Part shown: piece after piece, positions 7,686 through 28,657 of the stretch
Layout of the letters: every line of letters begins with the position of its first letter
How positions within the stretch are numbered: position 1 is the stretch's first letter
Source: Pseudomonadota bacterium
Lineage (GTDB): Bacteria > Pseudomonadota > Alphaproteobacteria > Rhizobiales > Hyphomicrobiaceae
Reading direction: 5' to 3'
Length of the DNA stretch: 32,000 nucleotides
Assembly: GCA_046048295.1 (NCBI GenBank)
Contig: JBJOGJ010000005.1
Location: forward strand, 8,235-40,234
Notes under the pieces: generated by a model
What the model was told of the DNA's origin: nothing
Databases searched by the model: none
The model's input: the letters and a program-made list of their open reading frames with translations, nothing else
Made by a program: the position numbers and the translations under genes

Positions 7686-8480
7686 ATGATCTTCGATGAC
7701 GATCTCGAACAGCCTAAGATTCCCGAGTTTCCGCGCCAGATTGCACCCGATACATGGTGGTTCAGCACCTGCCTCGAGATCACAGTTCACGGGCGCAAGG
7801 TGCACAATCACAATTCCTGCTATCTGATTGCCGGCACCGACGCGACGGTCATGATCGATACCGGAATGCCGCTTGGCTGGGACGTGCTCAAGCCACAGAT
7901 CGAAACCGTACTTGCAGGCCGGCCGCTCGACTACATATTTCCCACGCATCCCGAAGCCCCGCACATGGGCAATGCTCAACCTCTCATGGACATCTATCCG
8001 GATCTCATGCTCGTAGGTGACCTGAGAACCTATCATCTTTATCTACCCGGCGAGGAGCACCGCTTTCGACACGTCGAGACAGGGTACATCCTCGAGTTGG
8101 GCGGCCGGCGGCTCGAGATGGTCCCCGCACTCGTGCACGACCTCCCAAACACACTGTGGGGATATGATCCCGAGCTCGAGATCCTTTTCGTAAGCGACGC
8201 CTATCCCTACACGCACGACCACATGGCCGGACAGTGTGCCATGATCTCGAGCGAACTCCCTCGAACGCCGGTGGCAGAAGACACCAGTCGGGTGATTGAA
8301 GGCGCGCTCAACTGGACGAGGTTCGTAGACCCTGAGGTGATAGCCTGCGAGCTGGATGCCTACCTCGAGCGATACCCGACGAGGATTATCGCCCCAGCCC
8401 ATGGAGCTGTCACGATCGAGCCTGAGGTTCTAACGAATGTCTTCAAGTCCGGTCTGCGGCGAGTGAGTGTCACATCATGA
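7686..8480 (+). CDS. MBL-fold protein resembling the di-iron core domain of flavodiiron proteins / ODP; most metal ligands retained
   Basis: Motifs at FDP-like spacing: FPTHPEAPHMGN (H-x-E-x-P-H instead of H-x-E-x-D-H), LVHDL, ILFVSDAYP and IIAPAHG. GGGAGG lies 5 nt before ATG 7686. No flavodoxin or rubredoxin domain. Confidence 0.7.
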   Translation: MIFDDDLEQPKIPEFPRQIAPDTWWFSTCLEITVHGRKVHNHNSCYLIAGTDATVMIDTGMPLGWDVLKPQIETVLAGRPLDYIFPTHPEAPHMGNAQPLMDIYPDLMLVGDLRTYHLYLPGEEHRFRHVETGYILELGGRRLEMVPALVHDLPNTLWGYDPELEILFVSDAYPYTHDHMAGQCAMISSELPRTPVAEDTSRVIEGALNWTRFVDPEVIACELDAYLERYPTRIIAPAHGAVTIEPEVLTNVFKSGLRRVSVTS

Positions 8481-14736: not shown

Positions 14737-15876
14737 CTATGTCGAGAGGATGTTGATCGAACAAGCCCCGTGGTCCAGCCCGGCAATACCGCCACCGGTA
14801 CAGTGGGCAAGCGCGACCCTGGCCCCCTCCACCTGACGGGCACCAGCCTCCCCACGCAAGTGCCATACAAGCTCGACGAGTTGGGCGGCCCCGGTAGCTC
14901 CGACTGGATGGCCTTTGCATAGAAGGCCACCCGACGGGTTGACCGGGATGCGGCCGCCAAGGGATGTGGCGCCTGATTCAAGTAGCGCCGCAGCCTCGCC
15001 GCGCCCGCAAAAGCCGAAAGCCTCATAATAAAGGAATTCGGCAATGGTGAAGGCGTCGTGCAGTTCGGCAACGTCGATGTCATCGGGGCCGATCCCGGAT
15101 TCCTCGTAGATCTGTCTTGCCGCGCGCATGGTGATCTCAGGCGTGGTCATGTCTCGAAAACCGGTCTTGTAGAGCCCGGAATTGAGGACCGAGCCCTTGA
15201 CCCAGACGGGCTTCTTCGCGGCTTGCTTCACCTTCTCGGCGCTGCAGAGAACGAGGGCGGCTGCGCCATCGCCGGTCGGACAGCAGTGGAGAAGCGTGAA
15301 CGGATCGCAGATCGGCCGCGTGCTCATTACCTCATCAACCGTCACCTCATTCTGATACTGGGCAAAAGGATTGAGCGCCGCATGACGATGGGCCTTTACG
15401 GCGACCCCGGCCAGTTGCTCACGCGTGATGCCGTGCTCGTGCATGTAGCGGTTCGCCCGCATGGCATAGAGCGCCGGCATGGTCAGACCGATGGCAACGT
15501 CCCAGTCGTCCGGCTGTCCTGGCAAAACACCACCGCCGAGCGCCGTCAACTTGTCGACCCCGATGACGAGGGCAACATCCCATCGCCCATCCGCAATCGC
15601 CATGTAGGCCTCTCGGAAGGCTGTCCCACCTGACGAGCATGCATTTTCGCAATTGACAACTGGCAGCCCCAGCATGCCGAGAGGCCGCAGAACCCTTTGC
15701 CCGACGAGCCGGCCGGAATAGGCCGAACCAAAATAGGCGGCCTCGATGTCCCGGCGGTCGAAACCGGAATCCACTATTGCCGCCTTGACCACCGGCCAGC
15801 CCAGGTCCTGGACCGAGAGCTCAGGGTACTTCTTGATACGGCACATCGCGGCGCCGGCAATCGCAACGTCACGCAT
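14737..15876 (-). CDS. SCP-x/thiolase-like acetyl-CoA C-acyltransferase (nucleophilic Cys present)
   Basis: VVNCENACSSGGTAF (nucleophile motif), NPSGGLLCKGHPVGATG (His), AHCTGGG. The HDCF-type loop reads ELHDAF. ATG 15876 lies 8 nt after the DUF35 stop. Confidence 0.85.
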   Translation of the reverse strand: MRDVAIAGAAMCRIKKYPELSVQDLGWPVVKAAIVDSGFDRRDIEAAYFGSAYSGRLVGQRVLRPLGMLGLPVVNCENACSSGGTAFREAYMAIADGRWDVALVIGVDKLTALGGGVLPGQPDDWDVAIGLTMPALYAMRANRYMHEHGITREQLAGVAVKAHRHAALNPFAQYQNEVTVDEVMSTRPICDPFTLLHCCPTGDGAAALVLCSAEKVKQAAKKPVWVKGSVLNSGLYKTGFRDMTTPEITMRAARQIYEESGIGPDDIDVAELHDAFTIAEFLYYEAFGFCGRGEAAALLESGATSLGGRIPVNPSGGLLCKGHPVGATGAAQLVELVWHLRGEAGARQVEGARVALAHCTGGGIAGLDHGACSINILST

Positions 15877-15884
15877 GGACTGTT

Positions 15885-16292
15885 TCAATCCTGTTTCCGG
15901 AAGCAGTGACTGAGGACAGGCGTACCGTCCTCCTGACGGTAGATTTCCTTTACGTCCAGCTCGACAGTGCAACCTATGGGCGGCGGCGACGACGGATCGC
16001 AGGCAATCGGCGCAGAGACACGCACCCCTTCCTCAAGGTCGATATAGGCGATGACATAAGGCACCCTCCAGCCTTTGCGGGCAACATGAACGACCGTGAA
16101 GGAATAGAGCGTGCCGGTGCGGGGGAGTTGCACCTTTTCGATCTTCGTCGACCAGCACGATGGGCAAATCCCAGGCTTCGGGAAAACGACACTGCGGCAA
16201 TTGGTACATATGCCCCCAAACATGAAGGGCACATCCTCAACATAGGCGACGGAGCCCGGCAGGGCCCATGCCTCCGCAGCCTGTTCGTTCAT
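15885..16292 (-). CDS. DUF35 (OB-fold plus zinc-ribbon) thiolase-associated protein
   Basis: 4-Cys ribbon CTNCRSVVFPKPGICPSCWS followed by an OB-fold segment (GTLYSFTVVH...PYVIAYIDLEEGVRV). GGGAGGAG RBS before ATG 16292 (MNEQAA...). Confidence 0.85.
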   Translation of the reverse strand: MNEQAAEAWALPGSVAYVEDVPFMFGGICTNCRSVVFPKPGICPSCWSTKIEKVQLPRTGTLYSFTVVHVARKGWRVPYVIAYIDLEEGVRVSAPIACDPSSPPPIGCTVELDVKEIYRQEDGTPVLSHCFRKQD

Positions 16293-16428
16293 CGTTTCTC
16301 CTCCCGCCCGCAATTGCAGTCGAAAGTGGATACGATTATTCTCCCCTCGTCAATCGCGCGTGGATCAACCCGCGCGCTCCAAGAACAATCGAATGCGCGC
16401 CTCCGGAAGGCGTGCCGGAGGAAATTGC

Positions 16429-17649
16429 ATGGCGGCCGGCCACGGAGCCCTCGGTCACATCCGCGTTCTCGATCTGACCGTATTCCTGTCGGGGCCCTAT
16501 GCGACGCAGATGCTCGGCGATCTCGGCGCCGATGTCATCAAGATCGAGCCGATGGACGGCGACCAGACACGCAACCTGCCGCCCAACTTCGTCGGCGAAG
16601 ACAGCGTCTACTATCATAGCCTGAACCGGAACAAGCGTAGCGTAGCGGTCGACTTGCGAAAGGCCGAAGGGCAACGGCTGGTCCAGCGTCTCGCAGAGCA
16701 GGCCGACATACTCATCGAAAACAATCGCCCAGGGGGCATGGCCAAATACGGGCTCGGCTACGATGACCTGAAGCGGATCAACCCGCGACTGGTCTATTGC
16801 TCGATCTCCGGCTTCGGACAGGACGGCCCCTTCCGGGACATGCCGGCCTACGACATGGTCGTCCAGGCCATATCGGGCGGCATGAGCCTTACCGGCGAAC
16901 CGGACGGCAGGCCGGTGCGCTCAGGCATTCCCATCGGCGACATTGGTGCCGCCCTCCACGCTGTTATCGGTATACTTGCTGCAATCGAGGCGCGACACAG
17001 AACTGGACTGGGACAGTATATCGATATCGCCATGTTGGACTGCCAGATCGCCATGCTGAGCTATCAGGCGGCATATTTTCTCGCATCCGGCAATGTCCCG
17101 AAGCCGCAAGGGCGCGGCCATGATTCCATACCGACCTACCGCTCATTCACGGCCGGTGACGGGCGCGAATTCGTAATTTGCGCGAATACGGATCGAATGT
17201 GGCGCTCGCTTTGCACGGCGGTCGGCCGAGAGGATCTAGGGCGCGACTCCCGACTTGCGACGAGACCGCAGCGGTATGAGCATCGCCATGAAATCTGGCA
17301 CGCACTGGAAACCGCGTTTCGTGAAAAGACGGCGGCCGAATGGGTCGAAATCCTTCGCATTGCAGAGGTTCCCGTTGGAGAAGTCAACACGCTCGACCAT
17401 GCGCTTACCCACCCGCAGGTCCAGCACCGGGATATGGTTCTCAACCTGAAGAGCGCCGGGTTGCACGTCGAAGTCGCTGGCAATCCCGTGAAAATGCCGG
17501 AATGGGGTGAACACCCTCCACGGTTTCCTCCCCGACATGGTGGCGATACGCGCCAGGTTCTGGCCGACGAACTCCGATTGAGCGAAACTGAAATCGACGA
17601 ACTGATAGCGATTGGCGCTGTTGGCGTACCCAAATCGGAGCGGGCCTAG
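16429..17649 (+). CDS. Family III (CaiB/BaiF/Frc-type) CoA-transferase
   Basis: IRVLDLTVFLSGPYATQMLGDLGADVIKIEP...YYHSLNRNKRSVAVDL...ILIENNRPG...GIPIGDIGAAL (catalytic Asp region). GGAGGA lies 6-7 nt before ATG 16429. Confidence 0.9.
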   Translation: MAAGHGALGHIRVLDLTVFLSGPYATQMLGDLGADVIKIEPMDGDQTRNLPPNFVGEDSVYYHSLNRNKRSVAVDLRKAEGQRLVQRLAEQADILIENNRPGGMAKYGLGYDDLKRINPRLVYCSISGFGQDGPFRDMPAYDMVVQAISGGMSLTGEPDGRPVRSGIPIGDIGAALHAVIGILAAIEARHRTGLGQYIDIAMLDCQIAMLSYQAAYFLASGNVPKPQGRGHDSIPTYRSFTAGDGREFVICANTDRMWRSLCTAVGREDLGRDSRLATRPQRYEHRHEIWHALETAFREKTAAEWVEILRIAEVPVGEVNTLDHALTHPQVQHRDMVLNLKSAGLHVEVAGNPVKMPEWGEHPPRFPPRHGGDTRQVLADELRLSETEIDELIAIGAVGVPKSERA

Positions 17650-23688: not shown

Positions 23689-24753
23689 ATGGGTGTAATG
23701 AGCATTGACTGCGACGCACACGTCATCGAGACGCCGAAGACATGGGAGTACATGGAGCCGGAGGACCGGAAATACCAGCCGGTCGTCGTCAGGCTGGCAG
23801 GCAGCGAGCAGCGGCTCCAGGGTGCCGACGAGAAGCAGCGCCAGTACTGGGCGATGGACGGAAGACTTGTGCCACGCGAACGCAACGTTGGTGACGACAC
23901 CGACAAGGCCACGCGTGAGATGGAGGACATTCCGGCCCGCCTGAAGCATATGGACGAATTGCATGTCGATATCCAGGTGCTTTTCCCGAGCCTCTGGCTC
24001 CGCCCGATCACCCACGATCCCAAGCTCGAGCTCGCGATGGCGCGCAGCTACAATCGCTGGACAGCAGAGGTGAGCAGCAAGAGCGGCGGGCGCATGCGTT
24101 GGGTCGTCATTCCGCCGTTACTTTCGCTGAACAACGGCTCGATCGTCCGCGATGAGCTGGTGTGGGCCAAGCAGAACGGCGCGGTCGGGATTCACATGTG
24201 CGGCTACTCCTGCGACAAGGAGATGACCGACCCGTTTTTCCAGCCATTCTTCAAGATGGCTGAGGAACTCGACATGCCGATCTGTTTCCACGCTGGTAAC
24301 CAAAGCTTCACAATCCACGACTTTCACATCAATTCAGACGGCTATCCGAAGTTCAAGGTGCCGGTCATAGCCGCGTTCAACTCCCTCCTACTGCACGAAA
24401 TTCCGAAGCGCTATCCTGGCCTCCGCTGGGCATTTGCCGAAACGGGCGCCATGTGGGTTCCCTACGTCCTGCACGAAACCTGGCGTCGATACAGGATGCG
24501 CGGCAAGTCCTTCGACATGGAAGGAGCGCTCGAGGCCAACAACCTTTTCGTCGCCGCACAGGCCAACGAGGACATTCCCTATCTTGCCAAGGTAGCTGGC
24601 GAGAACTGGATCATGATGGCGACGGACTATGGCCATGCGGATACATCGAGCGAGATAGATGCGATGCTGAAGATCGAGCAACGCAACGAAATGTCGGATA
24701 CGCTGAAGCAGAAGGTGCTCCGCGACAACGCCGCAAAATTCTACAAGCTCTGA
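23689..24753 (+). CDS. Amidohydrolase_2 (ACMSD/LigW/LigI-type metal-dependent hydrolase or decarboxylase) family protein
   Basis: N-terminal SIDCDAHVIE, mid GIHMCGY...PICFHAG, C-terminal ATDYGHAD...RDNAAKFY; this is the TIM-barrel amidohydrolase_2 pattern. Confidence 0.75.
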   Translation: MGVMSIDCDAHVIETPKTWEYMEPEDRKYQPVVVRLAGSEQRLQGADEKQRQYWAMDGRLVPRERNVGDDTDKATREMEDIPARLKHMDELHVDIQVLFPSLWLRPITHDPKLELAMARSYNRWTAEVSSKSGGRMRWVVIPPLLSLNNGSIVRDELVWAKQNGAVGIHMCGYSCDKEMTDPFFQPFFKMAEELDMPICFHAGNQSFTIHDFHINSDGYPKFKVPVIAAFNSLLLHEIPKRYPGLRWAFAETGAMWVPYVLHETWRRYRMRGKSFDMEGALEANNLFVAAQANEDIPYLAKVAGENWIMMATDYGHADTSSEIDAMLKIEQRNEMSDTLKQKVLRDNAAKFYKL

Positions 24754-24784: not shown

Positions 24785-24808
24785 GGCGGCGCCTGCAAAG
24801 GCGCCGCC
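24785..24808. terminator. Perfect GC hairpin between convergent genes (possible bidirectional terminator)
   Basis: ggcggcgcc - tgcaaa - ggcgccgcc, a 9-bp perfect stem. It sits between the stop at 24753 (+) and the stop at 24812 (-). The U-tract is weak. Confidence 0.45.
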
Positions 24809-24811
24809 TTG

Positions 24812-25219
24812 CTATGCCGGCTCGAACTTCGGAATTGTCAGCTCTGGCGTGACGTCATCGAACACAACCTTCACCGGCATGTCGCAAACAACCTTGCCGG
24901 GTTCGATCCCGACAATGTTGGCCATCATCCGCGGCCCCTCCGCTAGCTCAACCACAGCCACGACGTAGGGTAGCTCGCCCTCCCATCCCTTGTGATACAG
25001 GCGGTGGTAAGTGACGAAGGTGTGAACCTTCCCTGCCCCCGATGCCTCGGTCCACCCGAAATCGATGCTGCCGCAGTGCGGGCAGATCGTGGTCGGCGGG
25101 AACCAGGACTTGCTGCAATTGTTGCACTTCGGGATCTTAAGCTTGTGCTCCCGGGCTGCCACCCAGAACGGCTCCGCCTCGGGCGAAATGTGGGGGATCG
25201 GCTTCTTGTAGTCGCTCAT
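24812..25219 (-). CDS. DUF35 (OB-fold plus zinc-ribbon) thiolase-associated protein
   Basis: MSDYKKPIPHISPEAEPFW..., ribbon CNNCSKSWFPPTTICPHCGS, OB segment GKVHTFVTYH...PYVVAVVELAEG. ATG 25219 overlaps the upstream stop as ATGA. The 235-aa ORF-track version is an Arg-rich upstream extension and is rejected. Confidence 0.85.
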   Translation of the reverse strand: MSDYKKPIPHISPEAEPFWVAAREHKLKIPKCNNCSKSWFPPTTICPHCGSIDFGWTEASGAGKVHTFVTYHRLYHKGWEGELPYVVAVVELAEGPRMMANIVGIEPGKVVCDMPVKVVFDDVTPELTIPKFEPA

Positions 25220-26409
25220 TTTTTGCTCCCGAGAATCAGTGCCGTCTCGCAAACCGTATTGCCGCCATGGCCCGAGACGAGGCCGACCTCGGCATCCTTC
25301 ACCTGGCGGTCCGGACCGTATATGCCCTGCAGCTGGCGAACGCCTTCGACAACTTGCAGCATACCTTCCACGTGGGCTTCCGAGAGCTGACCTCCGGAAG
25401 TGTTCGTCGGCATGGCTCCATCGAGCCGAAGCGCTCCGGAAGCCACGAATTCTCCGCCCTCCCCCTTTTTGCAGAAGCCATAATCCTCGAGCTGTGCGAG
25501 GACCATGTAGGTGAAGCAATCGTAGATTTGCGCGAAATCGATATCATTGGGTCCGACGCCCGCCATGGCGTATGCGGTCTTGCCGGCCTCGATCGCACCT
25601 GTGTGGGTGCCATTATCGTTGTTCTGCCAACCGGTCAGGTTGTTGAATGTACCGAAACCCTTGATATAGACCGGACGCTGCCTGAGATCCTTCGCCCGCT
25701 CCGCCGAGGTCACGACCACGGCACCCGCGGCATCCGTCTGCAGCGAACAGTCGTAAAGGCCGAACGGCTCGACGATCATGCGCCCTGCAAGATAGTCCTC
25801 CATCGTCAGAGGCTTCTTCATGACCGCTTCGGGGTTGCGAAGGGCATGCTCCCGGAAGGCCACCGCGATATGCCCGAAGTGCTCGCGCGTCGTGCCATAG
25901 TCATGCATGTGGCGGCGGGCACCGAGCGCGTGGGCAGCAACCGCACTGAAAAATCCGAGCTCAGGCCCGAACTCGGAACTTTCCATCTGCTGCGGACGGC
26001 CGGAACTGCGCATGTGGCTGGCTGTACTGGCATGCACACGCGACCAGTTGTTGCGGCCGTAACCGACCAGCACATTGGTGGCGAGGCCGGCGTCGATGAC
26101 CATTGCCGCCAACCCCACGGCCAACGCCTGGCTTGCCCCGCCATTCGTCAGCGTCGTCGAGAAGCGAGCGTCGATCCCGAGTCGCTCGCCCACAACCTGA
26201 TGGAACGTGTAGATCTCATCAGGGCCGCGGCAGATGAGGCCATCGATGTCCTTCATCTTGAGGCCGGCGTCGTCGAGCGCGGCCGCCATCGCCTGCTCGA
26301 GCAATCCGAGCGACGAGACGCCCGGCACCTTGCCAAGTCGGCTCTTTCCCGTACCGACGATGGCACAGCGATTACGCAGATGCTTGGATGGCTCGAGTGG
26401 CATTGTCAT
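25216..26409 (-). CDS. Thiolase-like (SCP-x/Ltp-type) protein lacking the nucleophilic cysteine
   Basis: Aligns without gaps by eye to the 14737..15876 thiolase. NACSSG is replaced by NGGASQ and AHCTGGG by VSGHGGN. His is kept (SEAHVEG). The loop reads IYDCF. The start overlaps the CoA-transferase stop (ATGA). Confidence 0.8.
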   Translation of the reverse strand: MTMPLEPSKHLRNRCAIVGTGKSRLGKVPGVSSLGLLEQAMAAALDDAGLKMKDIDGLICRGPDEIYTFHQVVGERLGIDARFSTTLTNGGASQALAVGLAAMVIDAGLATNVLVGYGRNNWSRVHASTASHMRSSGRPQQMESSEFGPELGFFSAVAAHALGARRHMHDYGTTREHFGHIAVAFREHALRNPEAVMKKPLTMEDYLAGRMIVEPFGLYDCSLQTDAAGAVVVTSAERAKDLRQRPVYIKGFGTFNNLTGWQNNDNGTHTGAIEAGKTAYAMAGVGPNDIDFAQIYDCFTYMVLAQLEDYGFCKKGEGGEFVASGALRLDGAMPTNTSGGQLSEAHVEGMLQVVEGVRQLQGIYGPDRQVKDAEVGLVSGHGGNTVCETALILGSKK

Positions 26410-27563
26410 GCATTTTCTCCTGGAACCTTCAGTCCGACCCGCGCCAGAACTTCGGCCGTATGCTCCCCGTGAAGAGGCGCGGGCGACCTGATCTCACACG
26501 GCGTATCCGACAACGTGACCGCCCCCCCGACGAGCTTGACGGTTCCAAGCTTCGGATGCGGAATCTCCTTGATCATGCCGAGATGCTGAACCTGCGGGTC
26601 CGCAAGCGCCTCATCAAGAGAATAGATGGGGGCTGAAGGCACGTCCGCCTCGCGCAGCGCCTCCAGCCAATGTTCCCTTGGTTTGGTCTGGAAGATGGCG
26701 GAAAGCTTGCCGGAAAGTTCGTCATAGTTCTTGCGCCGATCTGCCTTGGTCTTGAAGCGCTCATCCGCAATCCATTCCTCGTGCCCGACCACCCGGCAGA
26801 GCCCCTCCCAGAACTTGGGTGGCGAAGAGAGATGCACGACGAACGGCTTGCCGTCTCCGGCAACGAATGCGAACACCGCTGCCGTCTGCGTCCTGGTCTT
26901 ACGGCGGGGAACCTTGCCTTCCTCGAAATAGCGTGCTGCATTCTCTCCGAGAAACGCCAGTGTCGATGAGAGCAGCGAGGTGTCGACTCGCTGTCCCCGG
27001 CCGGTACGCTCGCGCGCACAGATGGCGCCGAGGATGCCATAGGCCGCCATGATGCCCGAGAGATGGTCCGAGAGCGATACGCCCATCGGCTTCGGATCCT
27101 CCAGATCCGTGAGAACCGACAGAAGCGCGCCCATCGCCTGACCAACTGTATCGTAGCCTGGCCGCTTGGCATACGGTCCTGTCTGCCCGAAACCGGTAAC
27201 CGAGCAGTAGATGAGCCGCGGGTTGGCCGCGTTGAGCGTTTCGTAGCCAAGTCCGAGCCGCTCCATCGTCCCGGGCCGAAAGTTCTCTATGACCACGTCC
27301 GCCGTGGCGGCAAGCTTCAGTGCCGCCTCGACTCCTGCCTCCGACTTGAGGTCGAGCACAATGCTCTTCTTGTTCCGGTTGACGGAGCCGAAGGTTGCCG
27401 AGTAGTCGGCCGCCCCCCAGGAGCGGAACGGATCCCCACCTTTGACGGTCTCGACCTTGATCACCTCTGCACCGAGGTCGGCGAGCATCATGCCCGCATA
27501 GGGACCTGACACATAGGATGCAAACTCAAGCACCGTGATGCCGTCGAGCGCCGTCTTGGCCAC
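26406..27563 (-). CDS. Family III (CaiB/BaiF/Frc-type) CoA-transferase
   Basis: ITVLEFASYVSGPYAGMMLADLGAEVIKVE...SVNRNKKSIVLDL...VVIENFRPG...SLSDHLSG. GTG start at 27563 with AAGGAG 7 nt upstream. Confidence 0.9.
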   Translation of the reverse strand: MAKTALDGITVLEFASYVSGPYAGMMLADLGAEVIKVETVKGGDPFRSWGAADYSATFGSVNRNKKSIVLDLKSEAGVEAALKLAATADVVIENFRPGTMERLGLGYETLNAANPRLIYCSVTGFGQTGPYAKRPGYDTVGQAMGALLSVLTDLEDPKPMGVSLSDHLSGIMAAYGILGAICARERTGRGQRVDTSLLSSTLAFLGENAARYFEEGKVPRRKTRTQTAAVFAFVAGDGKPFVVHLSSPPKFWEGLCRVVGHEEWIADERFKTKADRRKNYDELSGKLSAIFQTKPREHWLEALREADVPSAPIYSLDEALADPQVQHLGMIKEIPHPKLGTVKLVGGAVTLSDTPCEIRSPAPLHGEHTAEVLARVGLKVPGENA

Positions 27564-27625
27564 TAGATTCTCCTTTGGAAAATGCCTGTCTACACTCGGA
27601 ATTCGCGCGGCTCCATCCAGTCCCG

Positions 27626-28657
27626 CTACTGAGCGATCTTTCTGAGTCGGGCGAGGAGTGCCGGAGGCATGGATTTCACCTCAGCCAATATATCATTGAT
27701 CTCTTTGCCGGATACCGGGTCGATTTCCATCTTCCGCTCCGCAGCGGTCTTGAGGAAGCCGGCATCCTTCATGGTCGCATCGAAGGCGGCACGCAGGATT
27801 GCCACGCGGTCGGGCGGCACTTTGGGGCCAAGCGCAAGGGGACGCCCCATGAGCTGCGGCGTGAACACAACCCGAAGCATCTTCAGGTCGTCGGGGGCCT
27901 TGACGAGATCGAAGACAACCGGGACATCAGTGAACTGCTTGTCCTTGTCGAAGCCGAGCAGCATCATGACTTTGATGTTGCCCGAATCAAGCCATGGCTT
28001 GATCCGCGACCGCAACGCGGCGGAAGATCCGCCGGAAGCATGGCCGAGAGCTTCCTTTTTCTCAAGCGCGAAGAGCGAAGCTGTCGATCCCTTGTAGCCT
28101 TCGACAACCTTGAATTTCATGCCCAGCACTTCGTTCAGCACCCGTGGATAGAGTGACGAGGATGTGCCGGGTGTCGACGAACTCATTACGACCTCGATCT
28201 TCTTGAGATCGTCGAGCGTCCGCACACCCGACTCCTTGTGGATGAGTAGAAGCCCAGTCTCCTTTTGCGGACTGCCAAGCCAGTTGAACTTGTCGACTTC
28301 GAACCGTGCCTTCATGGTGTCAGGATAAAGCAAGGGCACAAGCGGAAGCTCGCGCTGGAAGCCGCCGATCACCGTTCCGTCCTGCGGCAGGCTGCCATAA
28401 ACGGCATTGGCGGCGATGAAGCTGCTGGCACCGGGCATATTCTTGACGACAATTGTAGGTTTGCCGGGAATATGGCTGTCGATGTATTGGGCGATCGTTC
28501 GCGCGTACTGGTCATATCCGCCTCCAACGGTCACGCCGATCACCATGTTGATCGTCTTGCCCTTGTAGAAATCTGCGGCGAGCGCGAAACCCGATGACAG
28601 CGAGATCGCAACGGCGGCACTCGCCGCAATGAGACGCGGACGGCGATAGAACTTCAC
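27626..28657 (-). CDS. Bug-family (TctC-like) periplasmic substrate-binding protein
   Basis: VKFYRRPRLIAASAAVAISLSSGFALA signal peptide, then FYKGKTINMVIGVTVGGGYDQYAR...VKNMPGASS. GTG 28657 is preceded by AGGAGGAG; the upstream extension to 28723 is rejected. Confidence 0.9.
   Translation of the reverse strand: MKFYRRPRLIAASAAVAISLSSGFALAADFYKGKTINMVIGVTVGGGYDQYARTIAQYIDSHIPGKPTIVVKNMPGASSFIAANAVYGSLPQDGTVIGGFQRELPLVPLLYPDTMKARFEVDKFNWLGSPQKETGLLLIHKESGVRTLDDLKKIEVVMSSSTPGTSSSLYPRVLNEVLGMKFKVVEGYKGSTASLFALEKKEALGHASGGSSAALRSRIKPWLDSGNIKVMMLLGFDKDKQFTDVPVVFDLVKAPDDLKMLRVVFTPQLMGRPLALGPKVPPDRVAILRAAFDATMKDAGFLKTAAERKMEIDPVSGKEINDILAEVKSMPPALLARLRKIAQ

Follow-up and report, generated by a model that had tools for sequence, protein, structure and literature searches.

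Organization of the locus

The stretch of DNA analyzed here (the window) comprises 32,000 nucleotides, positions 8,235 to 40,234 of contig JBJOGJ010000005.1, from the Hyphomicrobiaceae assembly GCA_046048295.1. On its minus strand lies a compact gene set whose central product, a protein of the thiolase fold that lacks the catalytic cysteine, may act as a retro-aldolase on coenzyme A (CoA) thioesters. An earlier note, made from the sequence alone, had described four genes at 24812-28657, all on the minus strand, with two ATGA overlaps; open reading frame (ORF) calls and Pfam agree on the genes and their orientation, and both overlaps are real when read directly from the sequence. The four genes and two adjoining features are listed below in window coordinates.

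27626..28657, minus strand: TctC/Bug-family periplasmic solute-binding protein (SBP), 343 amino acids, start GTG 28657; the maximal ORF extends to 28723
26406..27563, minus strand: family III (CaiB/BaiF-type) CoA-transferase, 385 amino acids
25216..26409, minus strand: Cys-less SCP2-type thiolase-fold protein, 397 amino acids, putative retro-aldolase catalytic subunit
24812..25219, minus strand: free-standing DUF35 protein, 135 amino acids, putative non-catalytic aldolase partner
24786..24809, no strand: GC hairpin read from the sequence, candidate bidirectional terminator
23689..24753, plus strand: convergent Amidohydro_2 gene (PF04909) with ligands like those of the amidohydrolase-related dinuclear oxygenases (AROs), candidate hydroxyl supplier

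The ATGA at 26409-26406 joins the stop of the CoA-transferase gene to the start of the thiolase-like gene, that at 25219-25216 joins the stop of the thiolase-like gene to the start of the DUF35 gene, and each of the two starts follows a GGAG-type ribosome-binding site at a distance of 6-7 nt. The two overlaps point to translational coupling of the CoA-transferase, thiolase-like and DUF35 genes. The public gene call for the thiolase-like protein has 395 amino acids and starts at ATG 26403; compared with this codon, ATG 26409 stands at a better distance (7 nt) from its GGAG and is the one that forms the ATGA overlap. At the other end of the set, the GTG start of the SBP gene is directly preceded by the ribosome-binding site AGGAGGAG, and because the housekeeping genes ppa, engB and yidC (identified by Pfam) lie upstream, the transcription unit would start at the SBP gene.

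Between the convergent stop codons of the DUF35 and Amidohydro_2 genes, the hairpin has a perfect 9-bp GC stem (GGCGGCGCC-TGCAAA-GGCGCCGCC) and is probably a terminator common to both genes. Scans of the minus strand for sigma-70 promoters and intrinsic terminators gave nothing above the shuffled background; the consensus terminator scan passed over the hairpin because it has no T run.

A thiolase fold without the catalytic cysteine

The thiolase-like gene is annotated as acetyl-CoA acetyltransferase, and its product matches Thiolase_C_1 (1e-47) and, weakly, Thiolase_N. We aligned it by MAFFT with 15 orthologues and with the Cys-bearing paralogue encoded in the same window (14737-15972). Where the paralogue has the nucleophile loop NACSSG, the central loop HDAFT and the C-terminal loop HCTGGG, the thiolase-like protein has NGGASQ, YDCFT and SGHGGN, respectively. 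The alignment reproduces the manual one on which the earlier note had based its claims that a Gly replaces the nucleophilic Cys, that the Cys of the C-terminal C-x-G-G motif is missing and that a YDCF loop is kept.

The key residues of the protein are Gly90/Gly91, Tyr296-Asp297-Cys298-Phe299, Gln341, His346 and Gly382-Gly383. Counted over 39 relatives, down to ~38% identity, Gly91, Tyr296, Asp297 and Thr300 never vary. Of these proteins, 28, including all close orthologues, have Cys at position 298, eight have Ala and three Ser; at position 346, 31 have His and seven have Tyr. No close orthologue in this alignment has a Cys at positions 88-94, and a nucleophilic Cys shifted by a few residues, a possibility raised beforehand, is rejected. 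True thiolases combine a nucleophilic Cys with a catalytic His and with an acid/base Cys located in CxGG or HDCF. Here both the nucleophile and the CxGG Cys are absent, leaving only His346 and the loop Cys298. Orthology to a characterized true thiolase is likewise rejected, as no NCBIfam thiolase model reaches its cut-off (best 349 vs 421 bits).

The earlier note had also proposed comparing the protein with known enzymes by alignment and structure prediction. A search of the thiolase-like protein against all PDB sequences gave the following matches.

4U4E, Sphaerobacter 'thiolase', uncharacterized and also Cys-less: 9e-75
6OK1, steroid aldolase TcLtp2: 3e-59
9MYR, bile-acid aldolase CtSal: 1e-48
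7YVY, Pyrococcus thiolase: 3e-41
6ESQ, archaeal thiolase: 2e-33
7PXP, BbsB: 4e-27

The AlphaFold2 model of the protein (pLDDT 91.3, pTM 0.92) has a single disordered loop (137-153), and Foldseek places 4u4e, Ltp2 (6ok1) and Sal (9myr) at the top in this order, with TM-scores of 0.84-0.87. The model, the Foldseek matches and the Thiolase_C_1 domain all identify the SCP2-type thiolase fold. By sequence as well as by predicted fold, the aldolases Ltp2 and Sal outrank every true thiolase, BbsB included, so that the closest characterized enzymes are retro-aldolases.

This kinship extends to the active site. The Gly at the nucleophile position aligns with a Gly of both Ltp2 and Sal, and in HMMER alignments Tyr296 corresponds to TcLtp2 Tyr294 and CtSal Tyr302, Cys298 to CtSal Cys304, and Gln341 to CtSal Gln347. 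Mutagenesis of CtSal identified Tyr302 as the catalytic base and Cys304, both in the YDCY loop, as the acid, while catalysis by Ltp2 involves Tyr294 of its YDHF loop together with Tyr344 (PMC12329534). Of the likeness to Ltp2-ChsH2 proposed in the earlier note, the relationship to aldolases holds, whereas the Ltp2-type acid does not: the predicted active site is of the Sal type, with Tyr and Cys, and position 346 is His. The thiolase-like protein thus appears to carry a Sal-like Tyr/Cys dyad in a site that still holds one element of a thiolase.

The putative DUF35 partner

The DUF35 protein consists solely of a zinc ribbon and an OB domain (Pfam zf-ChsH2, PF12172, and OB_ChsH2_C, PF01796). The ribbon is rubredoxin-like, of the C4 type, with the sequence CNNC-x10-CPHC (canonical CxxC-x10-CxxC). 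The best PDB matches are the DUF35 domains of TcChsH2 (2.7e-29) and CtShy (5e-22); the DUF35 partners of thiolases follow at 2e-12 for the archaeal protein, 7.5e-5 for BbsA and about 5e-5 for PhlB. The protein therefore matches the DUF35s of aldolases 10^10 to 10^24-fold better than those of thiolases. It is free-standing at 135 amino acids, with no fusion to MaoC as in ChsH2 and Shy. By analogy with these systems, in which the DUF35 domain is an obligate partner in a heterotetramer, the thiolase-like and DUF35 proteins would form a heteromeric complex.

The whole 3.9-Mb assembly has only two Thiolase_C_1 genes and two DUF35 genes, all of them within the window, and both DUF35 proteins are free-standing. 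The second pair, also on the minus strand, consists of a Cys-bearing BbsB-like thiolase (14737-15876) with its DUF35 gene directly upstream (15885-16292; the maximal ORF runs to 16313). A second family III CoA-transferase gene (16360-17649) is divergent from this pair.

The CoA-transferase and the binding protein

The CoA-transferase of the gene set matches Pfam PF02515 (CoA_transf_3) at 8.8e-125 and falls below every NCBIfam equivalog cut-off, the best model being succinate-glutarate CoA-transferase (284 bits vs a cut-off of 750 bits). In the PDB its closest relatives are formyl-CoA transferase (10uh, 1e-73) and succinate-hydroxymethylglutarate CoA-transferase (SUGCT, 9br6, 7.5e-71), transferases scoring 242-252 bits and racemases ~126 bits. 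The Asp of its GVSLSDHLSG motif corresponds in the alignment to that of GVAMTD, the motif of both 10uh and SUGCT; this Asp is the catalytic residue of these family III transferases. From these alignments the protein is a family III transferase, closer to transferases than to racemases, with the catalytic Asp position kept. A carnitine-type substrate was considered and dropped, the CaiB equivalog reaching only 113 bits.

The SBP scores just above the cut-off for TctC (PF03401, 32.3 bits vs 27), and its signal peptide ends in ...GFALA/ADF. Its PDB matches, to the SBP of a tripartite tricarboxylate transporter (25hk, 1.6e-5) and to Bug27, are weak. Proteins of the TctC family commonly bind di- and tricarboxylates. 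Orthologues of the SBP (45-49% identity) adjoin the thiolase-like gene at other loci (L002, L003 and L005 of the set described below). The window contains three TctC-type binding-protein genes and no TctA or TctB gene, and the binding proteins must therefore use membrane components encoded elsewhere; the genome has nine TctA genes, spread over other contigs.

Distribution and conservation

Proteins of this family are very numerous: a search gave more than 5,900 matches at 1e-20, which as a rule bear the names 'acetyl-CoA acetyltransferase' or 'thiolase family protein'. The patterns YDCFTYM and GFCxKGEGG match at no fewer than 598 places in species-representative genomes, with carriers that include Alpha- and Betaproteobacteria, Actinomycetes and Chloroflexota. 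Of the 80 genome loci kept from this pattern scan, 76 have a DUF35 gene adjoining the thiolase-like gene.

Orthologues, defined by 60% identity or more and collected from genome and metagenome scans, come mostly from Alphaproteobacteria (Xanthobacteraceae, Beijerinckiaceae and unclassified metagenome-assembled genomes), with single metagenome-assembled genomes of Chloroflexota and Thermodesulfobacteriota and many metagenome contigs. Within the taxonomic family of the window their distribution is patchy: an orthologue is present only in a genome of the same genus (80% identity), other members having paralogues of 37-44% identity or nothing. In the same-genus genome the trio of CoA-transferase, thiolase-like and DUF35 genes is kept at 85, 80 and 65% identity, respectively, between wholly different flanks.

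We clustered the ORFs of 90 orthologous loci, 23 of which extend 3 kb or more to either side. The thiolase-like gene has a DUF35 gene next to it in 86 of the 90, and in all 23 loci with long flanks. At the latter, a CoA-transferase gene (55-85% identity) is adjacent in 20, an orthologous TctC SBP is encoded in 14, a monooxygenase in 13 (luciferase-like monooxygenases, LLMs, in eight and Amidohydro_2 proteins in five), ABC-transport genes are found in ~7 and an MR/MLE enzyme in three. The clustering of CoA-transferase, thiolase-like, DUF35 and SBP genes is not due to chance. The conserved core consists of the CoA-transferase, thiolase-like and DUF35 genes, whereas the SBP, transport genes and upstream enzymes are variable. 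The accompanying genes differ by sub-clade: an ARO protein with a cupin and a LysR regulator, two LLMs with an SsuA-like ABC system, hydantoinase A/B, or an MR/MLE enzyme.

The 93 remaining neighbor ORFs include, according to a Pfam census, SsuA-like binding proteins, cupins, MFS transporters and Rieske proteins. The earlier note had remarked that the operon contains no hydratase; this is true of the four genes, and no hydratase of the ECH (enoyl-CoA hydratase) or MaoC families recurs among the neighbors at orthologous loci in this census. Nor was a steroid gene context seen, in a survey of neighbors that yielded the SBP, CoA-transferase, oxygenases and transporters and included no search aimed at steroid ring-degradation genes.

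Two of the alternative arrangements deserve description. At soil-type loci (L004 4743-6967, L005 4779-6981, L142 4729-6992, L145, L156, L168 and others), a tandem pair of luciferase-like, flavin mononucleotide-dependent monooxygenases lies immediately upstream of the thiolase-like gene. The nearest NCBIfam model for the pair is SfnG, far under its cut-off, and binding proteins of the SsuA/NMT1 kind are often nearby, as are ABC permeases. Together with a TauD gene in the window, the pair hints at a substrate of the organosulfonate type or another that depends on an oxygenase. At another group of loci (L122 257-5866, L141, L150, L006 and L002), hydantoinase A/B genes form a tight operon with the genes for the SBP, CoA-transferase, Cys-less thiolase-like and DUF35 proteins; the hydantoinase B subunit carries an acetone-carboxylase gamma domain as a fusion.

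An oxygenase-like neighbor

The convergent Amidohydro_2 protein has PtmU3 (6omp) as its best PDB match, at 2e-9. PtmU3 is a diiron monooxygenase with the ARO ligand set that hydroxylates diterpenoid-CoA intermediates (PMC10127204), and the ARO family has been defined by the motifs D-x-H ... D-x-P-H-x-D/E (PMC13154177). All seven ligand positions are present in the window protein (D9-A-H11, H201, E251 and D313-Y-G-H316-A-D318), and the motifs are kept in 12 of 12 orthologues encoded beside the CoA-transferase, thiolase-like and DUF35 genes (D-Y-G-H-A/S-D, with Trp for Gly in one). The match to PtmU3 is weak and the Pro of the published motif is a Gly here, and a motif-based census of AROs would for that reason miss this clade.

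In the sub-clade that is closest to the window (70-82% identity), the Amidohydro_2 gene lies upstream of the CoA-transferase gene, mostly immediately upstream and divergent. This holds wherever the flank is long enough (L001, L101, L103, L104, L108, L134, L136 and L165), with the exception of the same-genus genome; the orthologue in the window is instead convergent and just downstream of the DUF35 gene. The presence of this gene may answer the question of the missing hydratase, as the hydroxyl group could come from O2 rather than from water. We regard this as a lead, not as proof.

Tandem ARO-like Amidohydro_2 paralogues with intact motifs are found beside a cupin gene at L001 (3518-5643), L108 (547-2673) and L136 (2755-4899). 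The first two of these loci also have a LysR regulator and a VOC-family gene, with a VOC+Rieske fusion shown for L108. This layout is reminiscent of the AibH1/AibH2 heterodimer and its Rieske partner.

Proposed function and alternative explanations

We propose, with a probability of roughly 0.6, that the thiolase-like protein is a non-steroid retro-aldolase acting on a beta-hydroxyacyl-CoA that is made by CoA transfer, possibly after hydroxylation by an oxygenase. In this scheme the Bug/TctC protein would bind a carboxylic acid, which would be imported through tripartite-transporter membrane parts encoded elsewhere and turned into its CoA thioester by the family III CoA-transferase. The beta-hydroxyacyl-CoA could arise in two ways: the acid may arrive already hydroxylated, or the oxygenase-like Amidohydro_2 protein may hydroxylate the acyl-CoA. 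For cleavage between C-alpha and C-beta, Tyr296 would deprotonate the beta-hydroxyl and Cys298 would protonate the enolate, giving an aldehyde or ketone and a short acyl-CoA, and the latter could donate its CoA for the next round. The earlier note had outlined the same sequence of carboxylate uptake, CoA transfer and aldol cleavage; the homology of the parts and the co-occurrence of their genes support it, with the retro-aldol chemistry itself drawn from homology. The complex, the direction of the reaction, the recycling of CoA and the oxygenase step are likewise inferred from homology and linkage.

Several observations weigh against this proposal. The active site is identical to neither aldolase, as His346, the oxyanion-hole His of thiolases, is kept at the position taken by the catalytic Tyr344 in Ltp2 and by Gln352 in Sal, and Gln161 and Tyr165 of CtSal are Ala and His160, respectively, in the thiolase-like protein. 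The nearest structure, 4U4E, is that of an uncharacterized protein, and the enzymes of the clade are likewise uncharacterized. No SBP gene lies beside the same-genus orthologue. The ARO-like gene of the window belongs to a separate, convergent unit, and neither a Rieske protein nor another reductase partner is evident. Hydantoinase A/B genes, whose products resemble caprolactamase and acetophenone carboxylase, lie directly upstream at ~6 of the 90 loci and could signal a beta-keto rather than a beta-hydroxy intermediate. Finally, TbSLP, which also has a YDCF loop, showed just weak malonyl-CoA decarboxylase activity (PMC12329534).

The last two points lead to different reactions. The Cys-less protein could decarboxylate a malonyl-CoA-type (beta-carboxy) thioester: a di- or tricarboxylate would be imported and activated by CoA at one carboxylate, CO2 would be lost in a site that has both oxyanion holes and His346, and Cys298 would protonate the enolate. 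His346 is kept in 31 of the 39 relatives, the closest characterized relatives of the CoA-transferase use dicarboxylates (succinate-glutarate and succinate-hydroxymethylglutarate), and the ligand range common among TctC-family proteins would suit such a substrate. TbSLP, with YDCF and without the nucleophile, does decarboxylate malonyl-CoA, though very slowly; this activity, with a kcat of 0.005 s-1, was considered non-physiological, and it is absent from CtSal (PMC12329534). Moreover, a decarboxylase would leave the invariant Tyr296, a base for a hydroxyl group, without an obvious role and the recurrent oxygenase neighbors unexplained, and both the thiolase-like and the DUF35 subunits are closest to proven aldolases. 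We therefore consider decarboxylation unlikely.

The hydantoinase linkage points in turn to a non-covalent retro-Claisen cleavage of a 3-ketoacyl-CoA, in which the CoA thiolate or water would attack directly, with no acyl-enzyme, making the protein a functional thiolase or hydrolase. Ketone carboxylases make beta-keto acids that CoA transfer would activate, which fits the placement of hydantoinase A/B directly upstream of the CoA-transferase, thiolase-like and DUF35 genes at the five loci named above, and His346 and the Gly-rich oxyanion-hole loops are kept. Against this, such linkage is limited to ~6 of 90 loci, a separate Cys-bearing thiolase/DUF35 pair is available for this chemistry in the same window, and we know of no thiolase-fold enzyme that works in this way without a Cys nucleophile. 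CtSal, in which this residue is Gly, is incapable of thiolysis (PMC12329534), and we consider a retro-Claisen reaction quite improbable.

Aldol chemistry in the condensing direction, by which acetyl-CoA or another acyl-CoA enolate would be added to an aldehyde or ketone for assimilation or detoxification and the CoA-transferase would free the hydroxy acid, is very unlikely: aldol reactions are reversible and DUF35 complexes also condense (the archaeal thiolase/HMG-CoA synthase complex and PhlABC being among the PDB matches), but the context of binding proteins, transporters, oxygenases and LysR regulators is catabolic, and the SBP gene heading the operon argues for substrate import.

Returning to retro-aldol cleavage, its significance would lie in the extent of the family. 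Thousands of its genes are annotated as 'acetyl-CoA acetyltransferase' or 'thiolase family protein' though their products would be incapable of thiolysis, and the only characterized members are the steroid-specific Ltp2 and Sal. If the proposal is true, thiolase-fold aldolases extend to the catabolism of small-molecule carboxylates, a common mis-annotation is corrected, and the three core genes offer a tractable module in which to look for a new C-C-cleaving reaction and its substrate. The co-occurrence of oxygenases rather than hydratases suggests a testable alternative source of the beta-hydroxy thioester.

A broader idea, which must be regarded as doubtful, is that the trio of CoA-transferase, Cys-less aldolase and DUF35 protein forms, together with the monooxygenases, a hydratase-free, oxygen-dependent route of 'beta-cleavage'. 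Such a route would serve an acid in which beta-oxidation is blocked, for example by a branched or quaternary carbon: the acid would be activated by CoA transfer, an oxygenase would hydroxylate the beta carbon of the thioester, the thiolase-fold aldolase would split it, and the short acyl-CoA would recycle the CoA. This logic has so far been seen only piecemeal, with PtmU3 in biosynthesis and with Sal and Ltp2 in steroid catabolism.

Comparison with known systems

The best characterized match for both subunits is TcLtp2-ChsH2(DUF35), the steroid C3 side-chain aldolase of Thermomonospora curvata (6OK1). Similar to the window pair, TcLtp2 has lost the nucleophile and has a Tyr (Tyr294) at the position of Tyr296, and the C4 zinc ribbon has the same CxxC-x10-CxxC spacing. 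In contrast, TcLtp2 has YDHF where the window protein has YDCF, its general acid Tyr344 corresponds to His346, ChsH2 carries a MaoC domain, and the substrate is a steroid.

The bile-acid side-chain aldolase CtSal-CtShy(DUF35) of Comamonas testosteroni (9MYR; PMC12329534) shares the SCP2-type thiolase fold (Foldseek TM-score ~0.87) and the Gly at the nucleophile position. Its loop is YDCY and that of the window protein YDCF, both with a catalytic-type Tyr/Cys dyad, and the Gln of GGQL is conserved in both. The two proteins are 32% identical and differ at the positions of Gln352, Gln161 and Tyr165 noted above. In the Sal system, DUF35 makes up the C-terminal domain of Shy, a MaoC hydratase, and its zinc site is C3H1; the window DUF35 is a free protein of 135 amino acids with a C4 site. 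Sal is encoded in a steroid catabolic cluster, whereas the module in the window goes together with a CoA-transferase and an SBP.

The putative thiolase 4U4E of Sphaerobacter thermophilus, a structural genomics target, ranks first by sequence (~40% identity) and by fold (TM-scores 0.84/0.93). It, too, lacks the nucleophile (GGSSFV) and has Tyr-Asp-x-Phe-Thr, but differs in its YDSF and GHPGMYG loops, and it belongs to a sub-clade of Bordetella, Cupriavidus and Advenella loci. BbsAB (7PXP, benzoylsuccinyl-CoA thiolase) and the archaeal acetoacetyl-CoA thiolase/DUF35 complex (6ESQ) combine thiolase-fold and DUF35 subunits in the same way as the Cys-less pair of the window; both, however, still have the two cysteines, the nucleophile and that of CxGG, and it is the second pair in the window that is of this type.

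A non-steroid catabolic parallel may exist in ibuprofen degradation, where IpfD is an SCPx-type protein, IpfE is a DUF35 protein and activation is by a CoA ligase. In ibuprofen-degrading sphingomonads, IpfD/IpfE are reported to release propionyl-CoA from the CoA-activated acid, IpfD being annotated as a 'thiolase/acyl transferase' and the pair being referred to as a thiolase (PMC9195938). This pair resembles the one proposed for the window in serving a non-steroid catabolic pathway, a comparison made by description only.

Among these systems, the clade described here has in common with Sal and Ltp2 the fold, the loss of the nucleophile and the catalytic Tyr, and with Sal the Cys of the dyad, but it has neither their DUF35-MaoC fusion nor their steroid context. 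Its sequences make it reasonably probable that it represents a non-steroid clade of thiolase-fold aldolases, kin of Sal and Ltp2 but not previously characterized, with a free-standing DUF35 partner and a tightly linked CoA-transferase.

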